A stretch of DNA of 64,000 nt from Erysipelotrichaceae bacterium (GCA_015058985.1 SVBH01000005.1:9496-73495), one strand, 5' to 3'. Positions 28,301 to 35,675 are shown, numbered from the stretch's first letter. Notes: generated from the letters alone by a model not told the origin. Translations and numbers: made by a program.

Positions 28301-28343
28301 AACGTTTCTCTTTAAGTTAATACTATAAGAGAGGCGTTTTTTT
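28301..28343 (+). terminator. Terminator of the rimP-rbfA operon
   Basis: AACGTTTCTCTT...AAGAGAGGCGTT followed by a T-run. Confidence 0.7.
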
Positions 28344-28349
28344 AATTAT

Positions 28350-28377
28350 TTGAATATCATATAAAATATGATATAAT
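28350..28377 (+). promoter_or_regulatory. Putative SigA promoter with overlapping inverted repeat
   Basis: TTGAAT-16-TATAAT with TG extension; ATCATAT-AAA-ATATGAT palindrome across the spacer. Confidence 0.55.
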
Positions 28378-28412
28378 CTAAATGCATTATAGAATTTGGA
28401 GTGAGATGTATT

Positions 28413-30581
28413 ATGGTTATAGTTAACTATTTATTATTAATAACTTTATCAGTTGCATTAACTTTTTTATTTAGTTTTTTGTTAAAAAAAGATCGTAGTA
28501 AATTTTTAAAAATAATATCATTAAGTTTAGCGTTAGTCTTTTTCTTTAGATTTGAATGGGATAAAGAGGCCATTGGAAGTGTAAGAGGACTTAATATGTA
28601 TTCTCCTTTGGACAGTATGTTTGGTACTGCCATTAGTGCAATACTCATTTGGTTTACTTATGCCGTTGTATTATTCTTTGTTCTGTATCCATTTTTTAAA
28701 GTAAATAACATTAAAACTTTTTTAAAATACTTTGCACCAATAATTTTAATTTTGGATATAGTGTTCTTTAAAGAATACTGTATTGGTATAATGGGGGCAA
28801 AAGCGTTTAGTGAAATAACTGTTTGGTTAATTTTAATAACAGTAGAGTTATCTATGATGATAGCTTATTTTGTCGTTGAGTTTGCAAATAAAGAATGGTT
28901 GCAAACTTCTAAAAAGGAAATAGGAATTCTTTTCTTAACTTTGATTCCAATTCTAATATCTGCTATGCCAGTTTGGGGACCACAAGTATTATTAGGATAT
29001 GGACCTAGTCACTTAATACTTCAAGATTTGACTGAAGAACATAGAATTTCCATGTATATATGTTTAATCATTCCAATTGTCATTTATAAGGTATTGAAAA
29101 ACAAAAACATGGAAGTTAAAAGATTTACATTATTATATCTAAGTTTAGCTACTATGTGTGCTTATTGCTATAAATTTAAATTTGATATTTATTTAGAACC
29201 AGTTTCTTGGCCATTGCATTTGTGTAATACAGCAATGTTTGTCTTGCCAATTTGCTTTATCTTCAAATTAGACAAATTATTCTACTTTACTGTTTTCATC
29301 AATGTATTCGGAGCTTTTATAGCTATGGCTATGCCAAACTATACAGTAGAGAATATTTATGATATATCAACCGTTACATTTATGCTTAACCATAGTATCG
29401 CTTTCTTTATGCCGGCCCTAGCGGTTATGTTAGGATTATATGATAGACCTAACTTTAAACTATTTAAATATTCGTTAGTGGCTTTTGCAGTATATTTTAG
29501 CATCATAGCATTTCTAAATGGGTTATTACAAAACTATGGAAATGTTGATTTCTTCTTCTTAAATAGTGATTTTGTTGTTAGTAAACTAGGGGATTGGGCA
29601 GAGAATCTAAGAAATTATACATGGACATGGCACATAAAAGATTTGACATTAGTGTTCTATCCTTTATATCACACTTTGTTCTTCTTGTGTTATGTATTAC
29701 TATCTTTAGGAATGTGGTTCCTTTATGAACAAATGTTTGCAATGCAAGACTATGGATATGAATTAGCTCATAAAAAAGAAAAAAGAAAAATGGAAAAAAT
29801 AATCCTAAAGGAAAGTTTAGCAGGAAGGAGTATTGAGGAACCTATGAATGAAAAAGGAAAAGATTGTTTTGAATTGATTAACTTCTCTAAAAAATATGGA
29901 CTTAGCAAAAGATATGCTGTTAAAGGAGTTAACTTGAAAGTTAATGCTGGTGAAATTTTTGGTTTCTTAGGACCTAATGGAGCAGGTAAATCCACTATTA
30001 TTAAAAGCTTAGTAGGAATTCAATCAATCACGGATGGTAGAATTGAAGTTTGTGGTTATGATTTGCAAAAACAAGCTGTACAAGCTAAAAAACAAATGGG
30101 GTATGTTCCTGATCACTATGCATTATATGAAAATTTAACAGGTAGAGAATATATTAACTATATTGCAGATTTATATGGTGTTAAAAAGACTGAAAGAGAT
30201 GAAAGAATTAAAAAGTATGTTGAAATTTTCCAACTTGAAGAAGCATTTGATAATCAAATGAAAACATACTCACATGGTATGAAACAAAAAATGACTATTA
30301 TGGCTGCTTTGGTTCATAATCCTAAAGTTTGGATTTTGGATGAACCTTTAACAGGATTAGATCCTACTAGTATTTTCCAAGTTAAGGAATGTATGAAAGC
30401 TCATGCTGCTGCAGGAAATATTGTTTTCTTCTCATCGCATATTATTGATGTTGTTGAAAAACTTTGTACTAGAATTGCTATCATTAAAAAGGGGAATATT
30501 TTATGTGATGAAAAAGTTTCTACTTTAAAGAAAAAGAAAATAGATTTAGAGCAATTCTATTTAGACCATATCAAAGATTAG
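28413..30581 (+). CDS. Fusion: polytopic membrane region with YwaF/TMEM164-like domain plus C-terminal ABC ATPase
   Basis: Many hydrophobic helices with WPLHLCN, FMLNHS, DFFFL and YPLY motifs; GPNGAGKST, YSHGMKQK, LDEPLTGLD, SSH; GGAGTGAG RBS before ATG 28413. Confidence 0.8.
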   Translation: MVIVNYLLLITLSVALTFLFSFLLKKDRSKFLKIISLSLALVFFFRFEWDKEAIGSVRGLNMYSPLDSMFGTAISAILIWFTYAVVLFFVLYPFFKVNNIKTFLKYFAPIILILDIVFFKEYCIGIMGAKAFSEITVWLILITVELSMMIAYFVVEFANKEWLQTSKKEIGILFLTLIPILISAMPVWGPQVLLGYGPSHLILQDLTEEHRISMYICLIIPIVIYKVLKNKNMEVKRFTLLYLSLATMCAYCYKFKFDIYLEPVSWPLHLCNTAMFVLPICFIFKLDKLFYFTVFINVFGAFIAMAMPNYTVENIYDISTVTFMLNHSIAFFMPALAVMLGLYDRPNFKLFKYSLVAFAVYFSIIAFLNGLLQNYGNVDFFFLNSDFVVSKLGDWAENLRNYTWTWHIKDLTLVFYPLYHTLFFLCYVLLSLGMWFLYEQMFAMQDYGYELAHKKEKRKMEKIILKESLAGRSIEEPMNEKGKDCFELINFSKKYGLSKRYAVKGVNLKVNAGEIFGFLGPNGAGKSTIIKSLVGIQSITDGRIEVCGYDLQKQAVQAKKQMGYVPDHYALYENLTGREYINYIADLYGVKKTERDERIKKYVEIFQLEEAFDNQMKTYSHGMKQKMTIMAALVHNPKVWILDEPLTGLDPTSIFQVKECMKAHAAAGNIVFFSSHIIDVVEKLCTRIAIIKKGNILCDEKVSTLKKKKIDLEQFYLDHIKD

Positions 30582-30599
30582 TTTTAAAGGAGTAAAAAT

Positions 30600-32252
30600 A
30601 TGAAAAGTTTATTTGTGCTTGCCACAATGCAATTAAAAGATAAATTAAACTTATCATTCTTAAAGAACAAAAAACAATTGTTGTTTAAGAGTATTTTTGC
30701 TATTGTAAAATTTGTTATTACAATTGCTTTATGCTTCTTAATTCTTAGCTTGTGTGCAAATATGAGTTTATTCTCCTTATTCCCAATAGTTCCTACCAGT
30801 GTCATTGCGATAGTTTTTGCAATTATGCTATTGTTATCTACAATTTTTACAACAATAGATTTAACAAAGAAACTATATTATTCATACGATAACAGAATAT
30901 TACTTACGCTTCCAGCGTCTCCGGCGATAGTATTTGGTTCAAAGTTGTTAGTTCTTTATTTCTATGAAATATTGAAAAACTTAACATTCATGATACCTAT
31001 GTTTATCGCTTATGGACTTGTTAGTGGTTTTGGAATATTGTATTATCCATGGATGTTATTCTGCTTTGTGTTTATTTCCATGATACCTGTTTTAATTGGT
31101 TCTTTATTATCACTTCCAATGATGTGGTTGTTTATGGTGTTTAGAAAACACAAGATATTAAAAATTGCAACCTTCGTTTTAATTGTTGCAGGAATTTCTT
31201 TTGGAATATTTGAGGCAGTTATTCATATTCCTTCTAATATTGATATTATAAGACAATGGGGAACCCTGTTTTGGGATATCCAAGATTTCCTAGGTGCTTT
31301 TACCAATAAATTCAGTTATATTTATCAAACTGTAGTGATGATGGTTGGAAGAACAAGAAATTTGATTCATGTTCAGTTTGATTCTAATACATTTTTCTAT
31401 TTTGGTAGATTGATTTTAGCTTTGATTATAATGTTAGTAGCTACTCTATTAATAAATAAACCTTTATTCTATAAAATGGCAAGTAAACCATTTGAATATA
31501 AAAAAGATGAATTTTTAGTTAGAAATAAAAATGAAATTAGAATTCCTGTTGAGTCTATCATCAAAAAAGATGAAAGACTAACACTTAGAAGTGCATCGAC
31601 AATGTTTAATAGTTTGTTTATAGTAATTGGACTTCCATTTGCAATCTTACTACTTAATAAATTATTTGCTGCTATGAATACAAGACTTTTAGGGGATAAT
31701 CTAAGTATGTTCTTCATTATTCTAATCGCTTTGTTAATCTCTCTTTCAAGTAACAGTTTGGTAGCTTCTATATATAGTAGGGAAGGAAAAGTTGCTTATT
31801 TAATAAAAGCGATGCCAACTAAACATTCACCTTTCTTATTTAGTAAATTATTCTTCAATATTCTTATTGGTTCTATTGCATTTTTTGCTTTAGGTGTAGT
31901 GCTATATTATACAAGTTCTATTGACTCATCAAATGCTATGAGTTTAACATTTACTTTATATTTTGTTTACTTAGCTCATATGCTATGGTCTGCTGAATTT
32001 GATATTATGAATCCTCAAAATGAAAAATATCTATCTGATAATGACTATATTAATAATCCTAATGAAAACAAATCAACGTTCTTAGCATTCTTGATGGCCT
32101 TTGTCTTTTCTGCTTTTGCCTTGTTCTTATTTATAGAAGATGTTGCAGCAAGCTGGAATAAACTATTATGGATTAGTATTATTTTACTAATTTATAAGGC
32201 TTACACTTATTTAACTAAAGTAAAATACTTTTATAGGGAGAGATGTGAATGA
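30600..32252 (+). CDS. Putative ABC exporter permease (about 12-14 TM helices)
   Basis: Highly hydrophobic; 'ILLTLP', 'SKL' and 'SREG...LIKAMP' patterns typical of permeases paired with YSHGM-type ATPases. Confidence 0.75.
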   Translation: MKSLFVLATMQLKDKLNLSFLKNKKQLLFKSIFAIVKFVITIALCFLILSLCANMSLFSLFPIVPTSVIAIVFAIMLLLSTIFTTIDLTKKLYYSYDNRILLTLPASPAIVFGSKLLVLYFYEILKNLTFMIPMFIAYGLVSGFGILYYPWMLFCFVFISMIPVLIGSLLSLPMMWLFMVFRKHKILKIATFVLIVAGISFGIFEAVIHIPSNIDIIRQWGTLFWDIQDFLGAFTNKFSYIYQTVVMMVGRTRNLIHVQFDSNTFFYFGRLILALIIMLVATLLINKPLFYKMASKPFEYKKDEFLVRNKNEIRIPVESIIKKDERLTLRSASTMFNSLFIVIGLPFAILLLNKLFAAMNTRLLGDNLSMFFIILIALLISLSSNSLVASIYSREGKVAYLIKAMPTKHSPFLFSKLFFNILIGSIAFFALGVVLYYTSSIDSSNAMSLTFTLYFVYLAHMLWSAEFDIMNPQNEKYLSDNDYINNPNENKSTFLAFLMAFVFSAFALFLFIEDVAASWNKLLWISIILLIYKAYTYLTKVKYFYRERCE

Positions 32253-32653
32253 AAAAGTCAGTGTTATTATTAATTGGGATTATTTATATATTAGCAATTG
32301 CTACAGTCAGTTTTTTTGGATTAAAAGTCCAAATTGTAGGTGAAGTAGTTTACATCAATAGAATTGAATGTATTAATGAAGAAGTGAAAGTGTTCAATGA
32401 TGAAAAATATATAATAGTAGATTACTATGATGATCCGGATAATCCTCTTGTAGTTCAACTTGAATGGAGAATTTATCCAGATAATGCCACTAAGAAACTT
32501 GTGAATTTTGTTTATGATGAAACATCCACTGTTGCTACTGTAAATAAGTTAGGGACTGTTATTTTTAAAGAAAGTGGTCCTATCACTGTTTATATTACAG
32601 CAGCAGATGGCTCTAGTAACGTCATAGAGACCGTAAAGATTATTGCAAAATAA
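32249..32653 (+). CDS. Small N-anchored protein with one Big_2-like Ig domain
   Basis: N-terminal TM helix; 'IYPDNATKK.V.F...S.VATVNKLGTV' Big_2 pattern; ATGA overlap with the permease. Confidence 0.7.
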   Translation: MKKSVLLLIGIIYILAIATVSFFGLKVQIVGEVVYINRIECINEEVKVFNDEKYIIVDYYDDPDNPLVVQLEWRIYPDNATKKLVNFVYDETSTVATVNKLGTVIFKESGPITVYITAADGSSNVIETVKIIAK

Positions 32654-32694
32654 GATAAAATGTGTAAAATATAATAAACGTGGAGGAAGTAAAT

Positions 32695-34875
32695 ATGAAA
32701 AAAATATTAAGACTATTTTTAGTTTTAGTAACTATGGTAACTTTGACTGCATGTGGTGATAAAAAGATAGAATCTTTAGTTTTAAAAAACGGATTAGAAA
32801 AAACATCATATGAAATCAATGAGACTATAGATACAAGTGGTATCGTCGTAATTGTTAAATACAATGATGATACTAAAAAAGAAGTAGGGGCTGAGGATCT
32901 ACAATTTAGTGGGATTTCAACTGAAACAGCAGGAGAAAAAACTTTAGTTATTACCTACAAAAAGAAAACACTTGAAATCAAGTATACTGTTTTAGCTGGT
33001 ATTGATGGAGGAAATGGTGAAGGCGAACAACAACAACCTTCTGCTACTATTATCGGAGTAGAAGCACCTAGATTCGTTACTCTATATAACAACAATATTA
33101 AAGAAAACGAAAATAATGAAGAAGCTGAGTTCTTTGTTAGAACAAATGGGTATAAAGTTGGAGATGACAATGAATTCAAATTTTTACCAAACATTACTGC
33201 TTTAGATGGTGAAGGAAACCCTGTTGAAGTAAATAAATATAAAAGTGTTTCAACTATCTCAATTAAAGAAAATGATACTTATCAAGTTATTACAGGACTT
33301 GATAGAAAGAAATATGTAGAAGTAGATGAAGAAGCTTCAACATATGACTTTACAGAAGAAGCAATTGGAAAAACTTTCAAACTATCAGTTTATCCTGCTA
33401 GTTTAACAAGTTCTCAAATGGGTCAAATTGCTAAGTATACTCAAACATTTGAGTTTACTGTAGTTGATGGATACAATGTGTATTCAGTTGCTGAATTAAG
33501 TATTTTAAATAACGAAGAACCAGAAATCTGGGAATCATATAAATCAGTTCATAACATCACGACTGATAAAGTTGCAGGAGTTATTTTACATGATAACTTG
33601 CAATTAAAAACTTCAGATTTCCCAAGTTATTATTTCTATCAATCAACTGATGATGGAGTAGTAACTCATGCTTCATTAGGTGCTACTGAAAAAGAAAGAC
33701 AAGAACAATATCAAAACAAAGCAGTTGTAGGAACTATGAAAGATAATGAAACTTTCTATTATTACAATTTAGCTAAAGATGAATCATTCAATATTTATGG
33801 TAACTATTTTACAATTGATGCATCTACGTTACCTGTAGTATCTGACTATGGTTTTGATGGAAGTAACTCTCAATTATTCAAATTTGTTTCTCCTGAAGGA
33901 AATACAAATGTTAATATCACTGATTTAAATCTTTTAGGAAATTCATTGAACTATATAGGAACAGGAAGTGAAAGAGAATTAGCTCCTAATAATATGGGAG
34001 GATTAATTGGATTTAAATTATCATCTGAAAAACATAATGTTACTGATACTAATGCATCAAGAGTAGCAGCATATACAGTTGACAATGTAATTGCTAAAGG
34101 ATTCTTTATGAACTTTATGCCTGAGAGACAAAAAACTCAATTTAAGTTTAAAAATGTTAAATCATTTGACACATATGGAAATAGTTTATTCTTAGACAGA
34201 CAAACTAAAGTAGCTTTAGAAAACTGTCAATTTACTAGATCTGGAGGTCCATTAATTATAACTCAATACACATGGACAGAAGGATACACAACAGAAGATG
34301 ATTATATTAGTTTAGACATTGATAGCGCTACTATTGAAAATGGAACAGAATCATGGTTATATGGATTAGAATCATGGTTTGAATCTTATGGATATGCAGA
34401 TGACTTTGCAAGTATTGTTGCATTAAACGCAGTATTAAATGGATATGGAATTAAAGGATATGTAGTAAATGATGGTGCAAAAGGAGATAAGATTAATGTT
34501 CTTGCAGCTATGACTTACTACAGATACGAGAGCAGTGATACTACTACATTTGGTAAAGTAATTCTTAAAATCGATGGTCATACTGTTATAGATACTGTTA
34601 ATACTGATTCTGCAGTTAATCCATTGTATGCTCAAATCATGACATCTTATAATGCTCCTGGAGACCAAAAACCACCATTGTTTGTTAACTCTGAAGGTGA
34701 TTATGCATTCTTAGTCACTACTGATGGTGTAAACTTTAGATTAACAAGAGATTTAGTTACATTCGAATCAATTTCAGCTACTGATAATTTCTTCAAACAA
34801 GGTGAATATATAACACTATATCAAAATGGAATGGCATTCGTGTTAGGATACGATACAACTCCAATTGCAGCATAA
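32695..34875 (+). CDS. Large lipoprotein: Big_3-like Ig domain plus a probable beta-helix region
   Basis: Lipobox LTAC; 'KTSYEINETIDTSG..V.Y.D' Big_3 pattern; repetitive beta-strand/Asn pattern in the second half; GGAGG RBS. Confidence 0.75.
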   Translation: MKKILRLFLVLVTMVTLTACGDKKIESLVLKNGLEKTSYEINETIDTSGIVVIVKYNDDTKKEVGAEDLQFSGISTETAGEKTLVITYKKKTLEIKYTVLAGIDGGNGEGEQQQPSATIIGVEAPRFVTLYNNNIKENENNEEAEFFVRTNGYKVGDDNEFKFLPNITALDGEGNPVEVNKYKSVSTISIKENDTYQVITGLDRKKYVEVDEEASTYDFTEEAIGKTFKLSVYPASLTSSQMGQIAKYTQTFEFTVVDGYNVYSVAELSILNNEEPEIWESYKSVHNITTDKVAGVILHDNLQLKTSDFPSYYFYQSTDDGVVTHASLGATEKERQEQYQNKAVVGTMKDNETFYYYNLAKDESFNIYGNYFTIDASTLPVVSDYGFDGSNSQLFKFVSPEGNTNVNITDLNLLGNSLNYIGTGSERELAPNNMGGLIGFKLSSEKHNVTDTNASRVAAYTVDNVIAKGFFMNFMPERQKTQFKFKNVKSFDTYGNSLFLDRQTKVALENCQFTRSGGPLIITQYTWTEGYTTEDDYISLDIDSATIENGTESWLYGLESWFESYGYADDFASIVALNAVLNGYGIKGYVVNDGAKGDKINVLAAMTYYRYESSDTTTFGKVILKIDGHTVIDTVNTDSAVNPLYAQIMTSYNAPGDQKPPLFVNSEGDYAFLVTTDGVNFRLTRDLVTFESISATDNFFKQGEYITLYQNGMAFVLGYDTTPIAA

Positions 34876-34877
34876 AA

Positions 34878-34907
34878 TAAAAACTGTTAGTTCGCTAACA
34901 GTTTTTT
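34878..34907. terminator. Bidirectional terminator
   Basis: AAAAAACTGTTAG-TTCG-CTAACAGTTTTTT. Confidence 0.85.
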
Positions 34908-35650
34908 TATTCTTCTTCATTTTTTATAGGATGCCATAAGTCAAATTTAGAATCATTATGTAACATCAGTAAGAAATTATCTTTAGCAGAAGGATATTTA
35001 CGATACAAATCCTTTAACATTTTTTTCATTTCTTCTCTTTGTGTATGTTTATCATTAGGACAAGTTGAAACTACAACAGGAATCTCTAATTTTTTAGCAG
35101 CCATAGAAATCCAATTTTCTCTTGCATATACTAATGGTCTGATAAAATCTATATCGATATTATCTAAATGCATTCTTGGCGAAAAAGTCGCAACTCTACC
35201 ACCATAGATAGCATTCATAAGTAAAGTTTCAATTGCATCTTCTGCGTGGTGAGCAAAAGCAACTTTATTACAGTTTAAGGATTTAGCAGCTTGATTAACA
35301 GCTGCTTTTTTCATTCTAGAACAAATAGAGCAAGGCAATTGACCTTTACTAGTAGGATGTTGTTTTAAAATAGAATAGATATCATTATCAAATACTTCTA
35401 GTCTCATGTCTTTATTTTTAAAATATTCTACAACAGGACTCAAATCCATATTTGGAAATCCCATCTTAACATGGATTCCTATTACCTCAAACTTTTTGCC
35501 TGCAAATCTTTTGTAAATATTTAAAGCTTCTAGTAAAACTAAGGAATCTTTACCTCCGCTGATGCCAACCCCAATTATGTCATTTTCTTCTATTAAATTA
35601 TAATCTCTGTCAGCTTTTTTGATACAACCTAAAACTCTTTTCATTGACAT
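34907..35650 (-). CDS. ttcA: tRNA 2-thiocytidine(32) synthetase, TtcA family
   Basis: SGGKDS PP-loop, PCSICSRMKK, HHAEDAIETLLMN, IRPL, TCP; AAAGGTGG RBS favours ATG 35650. Confidence 0.85.
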   Translation of the reverse strand: MSMKRVLGCIKKADRDYNLIEENDIIGVGISGGKDSLVLLEALNIYKRFAGKKFEVIGIHVKMGFPNMDLSPVVEYFKNKDMRLEVFDNDIYSILKQHPTSKGQLPCSICSRMKKAAVNQAAKSLNCNKVAFAHHAEDAIETLLMNAIYGGRVATFSPRMHLDNIDIDFIRPLVYARENWISMAAKKLEIPVVVSTCPNDKHTQREEMKKMLKDLYRKYPSAKDNFLLMLHNDSKFDLWHPIKNEEE

Positions 35651-35675
35651 AATTAGTTCCACCTTTCTGCGTTTT

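Follow-up and report, generated by a model that had tools for sequence, protein, structure and literature searches.

The ATGY superfamily takes in AIG1/ADTRP, TMEM164, GPC1, YwaF and YpjA, with TMEM164 represented by the cryo-electron microscopy entry 9LW1. TMEM164 is a dimer that carries its acyl group as a thioester on C123, depends on H181 and takes a phospholipid as acyl donor, while I know of no bacterial member of the superfamily with a known substrate. Here I describe a cassette of four genes, g1 to g4, in a 64,000-nucleotide stretch of DNA from Erysipelotrichaceae bacterium (GCA_015058985.1 SVBH01000005.1:9496-73495; this whole stretch is called the window, and positions are counted from its first letter; Table 1). 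Its first gene fuses a YwaF/TMEM164-type membrane protein of 13 transmembrane (TM) helices to an ATP-binding cassette (ABC) ATPase, and the three that follow encode a permease, an anchored protein with an immunoglobulin-like (Ig) domain and a lipoprotein. From the sequence comparisons set out below, I lean towards reading the cassette as one membrane machine in which lipid movement powered by ATP would be coupled to the transfer of acyl chains at the membrane's outer surface.

Human TMEM164 and g1 share a match to Pfam family PF14808, a 7-TM core, a Cys at the start of a helix and an invariant His two helices later, and by analogy the expected common chemistry would be an acyl-Cys intermediate loaded from a phospholipid donor. 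Unlike TMEM164, g1 possesses an extra conserved 6-TM module at its N-terminus and a covalently fused ABC ATPase; its motif P-L-H-L-C-N puts a His two residues before the Cys where TMEM164 has C123-H124, and an equivalent of TMEM164 E106 was not identified in g1. Stand-alone YwaF proteins (Bacillus subtilis type, TIGR02206 or the former PF09529) belong to the same family as g1, with PF14808 also matching the B. subtilis control genome, but they have ~7 TM helices, no ATPase and a different genomic context, and are ~24% identical to g1 over the dyad region alone. Coupling of a transporter to a cargo-modifying enzyme, or flipping of a lipid that is then acylated or reacylated, is familiar from the PCAT peptidase-containing exporters and from LplT-Aas, MprF and Lnt with LolCDE, and Lnt, like TMEM164, draws its acyl-Cys intermediate from phospholipid. 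These systems offer a functional analogy to the cassette, with no enzyme homology and no ATGY-fold domain, and the cassette differs from all of them in that its enzyme is polytopic and attached to the nucleotide-binding domain (NBD) rather than to the transmembrane domain (TMD). EcsAB-RasP likewise associates an ABC ATPase with a membrane-embedded enzyme of hydrolase type, and EcsA is the best structural match of the g1 NBD; however, g2 matches no EcsB family in Pfam, RasP is a metalloprotease acting on peptides and not on lipids, and the likeness lies in the generic NBD alone. A literature search on the YwaF/TMEM164 families and PF16949 (the g2 family) returned the work on TMEM164 and nothing on a bacterial fusion, databases name proteins of the g1 type just 'YwaF family protein', and the system is uncharacterised, a new combination assembled from known families.

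By profile and by catalytic residues, g1 is a member of the PF14808/YwaF family, as the sequence-only reading of this DNA had supposed from its motif. The TMEM164 profile aligns, over positions 10-201 of its 217, with residues 218-406 of g1 (E 7.9e-18; 65.2 bits against a 25-bit cut-off, and 70.2 bits in the whole-genome scan), where residues are numbered from the start of the open reading frame (ORF) at 28401 and not from the ATG at 28413 that is backed by a ribosome-binding site (RBS); counted from that ATG the protein has 722 amino acids, a length identical to that of database protein P0001. The motif WPLHLCN (29208-29228) corresponds to residues 270-276, with the codon of Cys275 at 29223-29225, and the downstream His is His331 (codon 29391-29393). 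Neither residue varies across 38 full-length and 24 membrane-domain homologues, whose identity is no more than 35-55%, which answers the question of their conservation in orthologues, and H214, R215, H273 and many residues of an outside loop spanning 380-420 are likewise invariant or conserved in these two sets. As C123 and H181 of TMEM164 are catalytic and their equivalents here are invariant, Cys275 and His331 are under strong constraint, and the domain is, as judged from its residues, a catalytically intact one of the TMEM164/YwaF type.

The model of g1 made with AlphaFold2 (AF2) from an alignment of 38 homologues, with a mean predicted local distance difference test score (pLDDT) of 85.4, comprises 13 TM helices, namely an N-terminal six-helix bundle (residues 2-187, pLDDT 90-96) and seven core helices (212-445), the last of which continues as a single long helix (421-472) into the NBD (489-726). 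The earlier description of about 450 amino acids of membrane helices joined to an ABC ATPase thus becomes 13 TM helices within residues 1-445 followed by an intact ATPase. The NBD has to sit in the cytoplasm, and counting the helices from it would place the Cys/His dyad in the outer half of the membrane. The loop charges give this orientation independent support: averaged over the 38 homologues, the inside loops hold 17.1 Lys and Arg in ~66 residues versus 9.6 in ~170 residues outside. By this count, the extracytoplasmic half of the membrane would contain the His331 helix and the beginning of the Cys275 helix, together with H214/R215 and the 380-420 loop.

The N-terminal 6-TM module has no Pfam match, and as a lone query it found just one match of stand-alone size; the idea that it might be a degenerate duplicate of the YwaF core was discarded at an hhalign probability of 0.4%. 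The possibility that residues 1-445 are an ABC TMD was rejected as well, since hhalign gave a probability of <1% against the g2 family and Pfam shows no ABC membrane family there. This absence of profile similarity to the permease, and the existence of a plain ATPase and PF16949 pair lacking a YwaF region (see below), bear out the earlier view that the fused region is not an ordinary transporter TMD.

The ATPase half is equally well preserved. PF00005 (ABC_tran) matches residues 508-650 (E 7.8e-30, 104.7 bits), and the Walker A motif GPNGAGKS starting at 29970, the YSHGMKQK signature, DEPLTGLD and the Walker B motif ILDEP are all present, so that the ATPase is intact as had been claimed and each motif previously listed for gene 1 lies where it had been placed. 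Walker A (G524-S531), the Q-loop residue Q558, the signature (S624-Q629), D647/E648 and the H-loop residue H680 are all invariant among homologues, features of a competent ATPase. The domain resembles the DrrA, GldA, NodI and lantibiotic-protection subfamilies, all below cut-off (NCBIfam TIGR01188 223.8 vs 312; TIGR03522 204.9 vs 402.6; TIGR03740 153.6 vs 309.75), and by these scores it is a generic ABC-2-type NBD and no equivalog of a named subfamily. Its best Foldseek matches are EcsA (9a6w_B, template modelling score 0.91), TM0544-type proteins, LptB and ABCA1/4/7, with scores of 0.85-0.91 for EcsA and the TM0544 type. Many g1 homologues (loci L001-L080) are 30-130 amino acids longer than the window protein, up to 877 amino acids, and the extra sequence comes mostly after the NBD.

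A fusion seen in a single assembly might be a read-through artefact; this one is real. The combination of PF14808 with PF00005 occurs in >600 proteins (629+ homologues), the fused form makes up ~53 clusters at 50% identity, and full-length relatives turn up in at least 594 species-representative genomes, nearly all of them metagenome-assembled genomes from the gut labelled Christensenellales, Clostridia, Eubacteriales or Bacilli. The family is nevertheless small when set against the 1.84 billion cluster representatives covered by the profile search, with 613 clusters at E <= 0.001, of which 135 reach E <= 1e-30. Of the 149 top-scoring clusters, 53 carry the fusion, every one with Walker A, and 48 are full 13-TM proteins of 440-530 amino acids, 45 of which lack an NBD. 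When all flanking ORFs were clustered in a sample of 80 loci, the order g1-g2-g3-g4 on one strand was found wherever the contig reaches far enough, so the four-gene arrangement is conserved; the recurring families were those of g1 (80 loci), g2 (78), g3 (63) and g4 (61), with any other family present in at most 4 loci and no recurrent bacteriocin, regulator or sensor gene beside the cassette in these loci.

The same parts also occur in other arrangements. Two related genomes (L084 and L086) possess a split, five-gene version consisting of a 13-TM YwaF-like protein (492 or 634 amino acids), a separate ATPase that is 52-58% identical to the g1 NBD, and then a g2-like permease, a TM-anchored protein and a lipobox lipoprotein, and here the membrane protein retains P-x-Q-L-C-N and the His (E/Q-H at the equivalent place). 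An intact Cys/His domain, an NBD, a permease and two outward-facing anchored proteins are, in other words, inherited together, whether fused or split. Orphan 13-TM YwaF-like proteins of 477-488 amino acids with the motif P-L-Q-L-C-N and with neither an ABC nor a lipoprotein neighbour are found at L085:2580-4046 (+), L087:6357-7808 (+) and L088:8026-9459 (-), and their existence makes the enzyme family a self-standing one of which the ABC-linked form is a specialised branch. At L085 the orphan gene comes after a 584-amino-acid radical-SAM-like gene, and at L087 its start is overlapped by a gene for a 246-amino-acid polytopic protein.

The complementary subtraction is found in the window's own genome, where contig 4 (L083:7438-9754, minus strand) encodes a plain pair, paralogous to the cassette's transporter, of a 241-amino-acid DrrA/ABC-2-like ATPase and a 532-amino-acid PF16949 permease (23% identical to g2) with no YwaF region, Ig protein or lipoprotein. 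It follows that a PF16949 permease with an NBD is already a complete transporter and that the 13-TM region comes on top of it rather than supplying its membrane domain, which makes the plain pair a handy natural control. The plain pair adjoins ymdB/rny on one side and a MiaB-like radical SAM gene on the other. The genome also holds a second YwaF-family protein, a stand-alone one on contig 5 (L082:1462-2316, minus strand; 284 amino acids, PF14808 55 bits, with P-F-Q-F-C and L-L-H), whose gene is flanked by two paralogous genes of ~200 amino acids of unknown function, with a sigma-factor-like gene nearby.

The three partner genes were described beforehand as a separate full permease, an Ig anchor protein and a lipoprotein, and all three descriptions hold. 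The permease g2 matches PF16949 (ABC_tran_2) at 34.4 bits over a cut-off of 25.7, as do 19 of 26 orthologues, and is probably two ABC-2-like halves in tandem, with a shared motif Y-S-x-(D/E)-(N/G)...L...P...S-K-L at equivalent positions; it lacks the large domain outside the membrane that MacB/FtsX-type permeases carry, and its profile found no match among the PDB sequences even at E = 10. The small protein g3 combines an N-terminal TM helix with one outward-facing Big_2-type Ig domain bearing the signature R-V-x-P-D-N-A-T-N-K-x-V. As for g4, its lipobox L-T-A-C has the Cys codon at 32752-32754 and this Cys is invariant in 30 orthologues, the residues that follow it are not conserved, and the mature part starts with one or more Ig-like (Big_3) domains and ends in a conserved, beta-rich body of ~470 amino acids that has no Pfam and no PDB sequence relative and whose homology search gave, among those listed, 13 matches, none of them named. 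It is also the most variable part of the cassette, with 23-35% identity across loci and lengths of 390-1751 amino acids. The AF2 model of g4 (pLDDT 81, predicted template modelling score 0.79) matched solely tandem Ig-like domains in Foldseek (the S-layer proteins Sap, EA1 and SbsC, and LigA); a guess from its Asn/Gly-rich invariant columns, that the C-terminal body is a beta-helix of the pectate-lyase type, was dropped because Foldseek returned these Ig tandems and the profile matched the N-terminal Ig domain alone.

Put together as the one machine I lean towards, two g1 NBDs would power the tandem ABC-2-type permease g2, which may carry a lipid, or a substrate with a lipid anchor, towards the outer leaflet or away from it. 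The tethered YwaF domain would either transfer acyl chains without coenzyme A (CoA) by way of acyl-Cys275, in the manner of TMEM164, or act as a hydrolase like AIG1, and g3 and g4 could serve as extracytoplasmic acceptors, substrates or capture partners. An active site in the outer leaflet would have access solely to lipid-borne acyl donors and to no acyl-CoA or acyl-acyl carrier protein, which fits the CoA-independent ping-pong chemistry of TMEM164, and two candidate substrates stand out, the diacylglyceryl anchor of g4 on the one hand and phospholipids and lysolipids, exogenous or the cell's own, on the other. Should this be true, the cassette would provide the first example of a polytopic lipid acyl-enzyme permanently joined to an ABC motor, and the coupling suggests a route to acyl chemistry under ATP control on the energy-poor outer face of the membrane. 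The cassette also gives a defined and portable context, with an enzyme, a motor, a permease and two surface partners that are conserved together, in which to find the substrate of a bacterial ATGY protein.

The biology of the host genomes gives this reading a setting. The window's assembly is 837 kb in 8 contigs and 87% complete, and the cassette is patchy among its relatives, being present in 14 of 41 genomes and in 7 of the 11 of the same family, with four copies in one genome. Ketoacyl synthase (KS, PF00109) is absent in 39 of the 41 genomes of the host's order (the window's genome and 40 relatives, ~0.9-2.4 Mb), and the whole order appears to be fatty-acid auxotrophic; in carriers from other lineages (0.7-2.3 Mb, median 1.35 Mb), 42 of 44 genomes lack it. 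As background I used an evenly drawn 200-genome sample of the class around a Christensenellales carrier, in which 130 genomes have KS (35% lack it), so that KS loss in carriers exceeds the class background with a Fisher p of ~1.5e-14, and the two genomes in this sample that do have the cassette are both KS-negative and ~1 Mb in size. Loss of type II fatty-acid synthesis was discarded as a discriminator within the host's order, since 39 of 41 genomes there are without KS regardless of the cassette. The few KS-positive genomes among relatives and carriers (G022:C12, G023:C1, G057:C24 and G058:C20) show two PF00109 matches in single frames of ~805-840 amino acids, unlike the usual FabF of ~410 amino acids, and these proteins may be fused or resemble polyketide synthases.

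The carriers belong to abundant but uncultured lineages of the gut that have small genomes (Christensenellales-like Clostridia and reduced Bacilli), nearly all without fatty-acid synthesis, and the system may bear on how they obtain or edit their membrane lipids, display surface proteins, and depend on the host, the diet or their neighbors. A more specific version of the machine, which I consider possible but unlikely, is that it harvests and remodels lipids in fatty-acid-auxotrophic gut Firmicutes: g3 and g4 would capture foreign phospholipid or lysolipid, the YwaF domain would strip an acyl chain onto Cys275 without CoA or ATP and pass it to the cell's own lysolipid or to a lipoprotein, and the ABC-2 part would flip the acceptor or the product between leaflets. 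If true, this would be the first function for a bacterial ATGY enzyme and a new way to build membrane without fatty-acid synthesis.

Several observations weigh against such a coupled lipid machine and its setting. The orphan 13-TM proteins occur without an ABC partner, so the enzyme has no intrinsic need for ATP, and both the proximity of Cys and His and their depth in the membrane rest on the helix order of a predicted model. Whole-chain Foldseek of g1 against the PDB gave a top 50 that was NBD-driven throughout, with none from the membrane part, and the profile of the g1 membrane region found no match among PDB sequences even at E = 10. The internal duplication of g2 is weakly supported, with E = 0.04 when its halves are aligned by hhalign. 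Finally, the association with KS loss is confounded by shared ancestry and genome reduction, and I use it as background to the reading without counting it as proof; the cassette is present in just 2 of the ~70 KS-negative genomes of the class sample.

The sequence-only reading had pictured an ATP-coupled machine for acylation or deacylation and export that possibly acts on the co-encoded lipoprotein, yet lipid scavenging and remodelling, or an enzyme gated by ATP, would fit the data at least as well. In its explicit form, the lipoprotein explanation has the YwaF domain act on g4 by N-acylation (Lnt-like, with a phospholipid donor), by remodelling of the anchor or by deacylation and shedding, while the ABC part extracts or presents the anchor as Lol does, and I consider it possible but unlikely. 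That g4 is a lipoprotein is indicated by its lipobox Cys signal and by the presence of LspA in the genome. It is kept with the cassette, its invariant lipobox Cys included, also in the split variants, the predicted outer-leaflet active site coincides with the location of lipoprotein anchors, and Lnt uses the same Cys acyl-enzyme logic; however, the residues after the lipobox Cys are not conserved, the low identity and wide length range of g4 suggest a variable surface protein more than a dedicated substrate, the orphan enzymes have no lipoprotein beside them, and the hosts are monoderm Firmicutes with no outer membrane to which lipoproteins could be trafficked. A general Pfam scan of g1-g4 (E <= 0.1), which was no dedicated test, gave no match to the Lnt (CN-hydrolase) family or to the LolC/E MacB-type family. 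Lgt (PF01790) was not found in the incomplete window assembly, but 39 of the 41 relatives have it and an assembly gap most likely accounts for its absence; the thought that the cassette substitutes for a missing Lgt was abandoned on the same count, the cassette being in 14 of 41.

Rather doubtful, in my estimate, is the proposal that the ABC part transports nothing and that ATP hydrolysis instead drives a conformational change that gates the YwaF enzyme or its outside partners g3 and g4 by mechanotransmission, as in FtsEX with its hydrolases or EcsAB-RasP. The top structural match of the NBD is indeed EcsA in the integrative EcsA-RasP model, the continuous helix 421-472 joins the last TM helix of the enzyme to the NBD, and the orphan enzymes that lack an ABC partner would allow the ABC part to be a regulatory add-on, but the NBD bears only a generic likeness to EcsA, one that it shares with many ABC ATPases (27-36% identity), the plain two-gene transporter of the same genome has a permease of the g2 family, and g2 is without the large extracytoplasmic domain expected from MacB or FtsX.

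I find it quite improbable that the cassette serves immunity or detoxification, with an ABC-2 exporter and a surface lipoprotein in the style of LanFEG and LanI acting against a membrane-active lipopeptide or lipid toxin that the YwaF domain deacylates. The patchy distribution with varying copy number and the variable surface character of g4 would suit this, as would the resemblance of the NBD to the lantibiotic-protection (TIGR03740, 153 bits) and DrrA (TIGR01188, 224 bits) ATPases, yet both scores are far under their cut-offs, none of the genes that recur beside the cassette is a bacteriocin, regulator or sensor gene, and g4, for which no relative can be recognised, greatly exceeds LanI-type lipoproteins in size. 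That the YwaF region is a mere membrane anchor or dimerisation scaffold for the ATPase, with catalysis irrelevant, is very improbable, for although TMEM164 is a dimer and the domain could just pair two NBDs, Cys275, His331, H214, R215, H273 and the outside loop are invariant across lineages sharing 45-55% identity and the Cys and His are retained in split and orphan forms.

Table 1. Positions of the cassette genes, the g1 domains and the transcription signals in the window.
Feature	Position	Strand	Basis
g1, 13-TM YwaF/TMEM164-type protein fused to ABC ATPase	28413..30581 (ORF open from 28401)	+	PF14808 + PF00005, AF2 model
N-terminal 6-TM module of g1, aa 1-211, no known family	28401..29033	+	pLDDT 90-96, no Pfam match
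7-TM YwaF/TMEM164 core of g1, aa 212-445	29034..29735	+	invariant columns, DSSP helices, positive-inside topology
Stalk helix (cytoplasmic) and ABC nucleotide-binding domain of g1	29736..30578	+	motifs, Pfam, structural matches
g2, PF16949 (ABC_tran_2) polytopic permease	30600..32252	+	Pfam profile match
g3, single-pass membrane protein with Big_2-type Ig domain	32249..32653	+	ORF, Pfam; start overlaps g2 stop by 4 nt
g4, lipoprotein, ORF 32680-34875, RBS-backed ATG 32695	32695..34875	+	lipobox LTAC, Big_3 domain
Promoter-like site TTGAAT-16-TATAAT with TG extension (extended -10)	28350..28377	+	10/12 consensus match
Intrinsic terminator of the upstream infB-rbfA unit; 5' cassette boundary	28301..28345	+	12-bp stem then T-run; -16.2 kcal/mol, z = -5.2, 0/200 shuffles fold as well
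Bidirectional terminator hairpin between g4 and the convergent gene	34879..34906	.	12-bp stem, T-runs on both strands; z = -6.5

The outline of the operon as previously drawn, with four tightly spaced genes, one promoter and one terminator, is largely retained. ORF calling in the window confirms four co-directional genes with gaps of 18, -4 and 41 nt, and the terminator is a clear 12-bp hairpin. The promoter-like site is where it had been placed, and its being a real promoter is plausible only, because such matches are no commoner than chance in this AT-rich DNA (46 observed vs 52 expected from shuffles, i.e., no enrichment). The GC content of the cassette equals that of its flanks, and recent horizontal transfer was set aside as an explanation for which composition gives no signal. 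Around the cassette in the window lie infB, rbfA, the convergent gene and truB, an arrangement not conserved at other loci. The convergent gene that shares the bidirectional terminator (window 34907-35662, minus strand) encodes a protein of 251 amino acids with an SGGKDS PP-loop motif that looks TtcA/TilS-like by eye.

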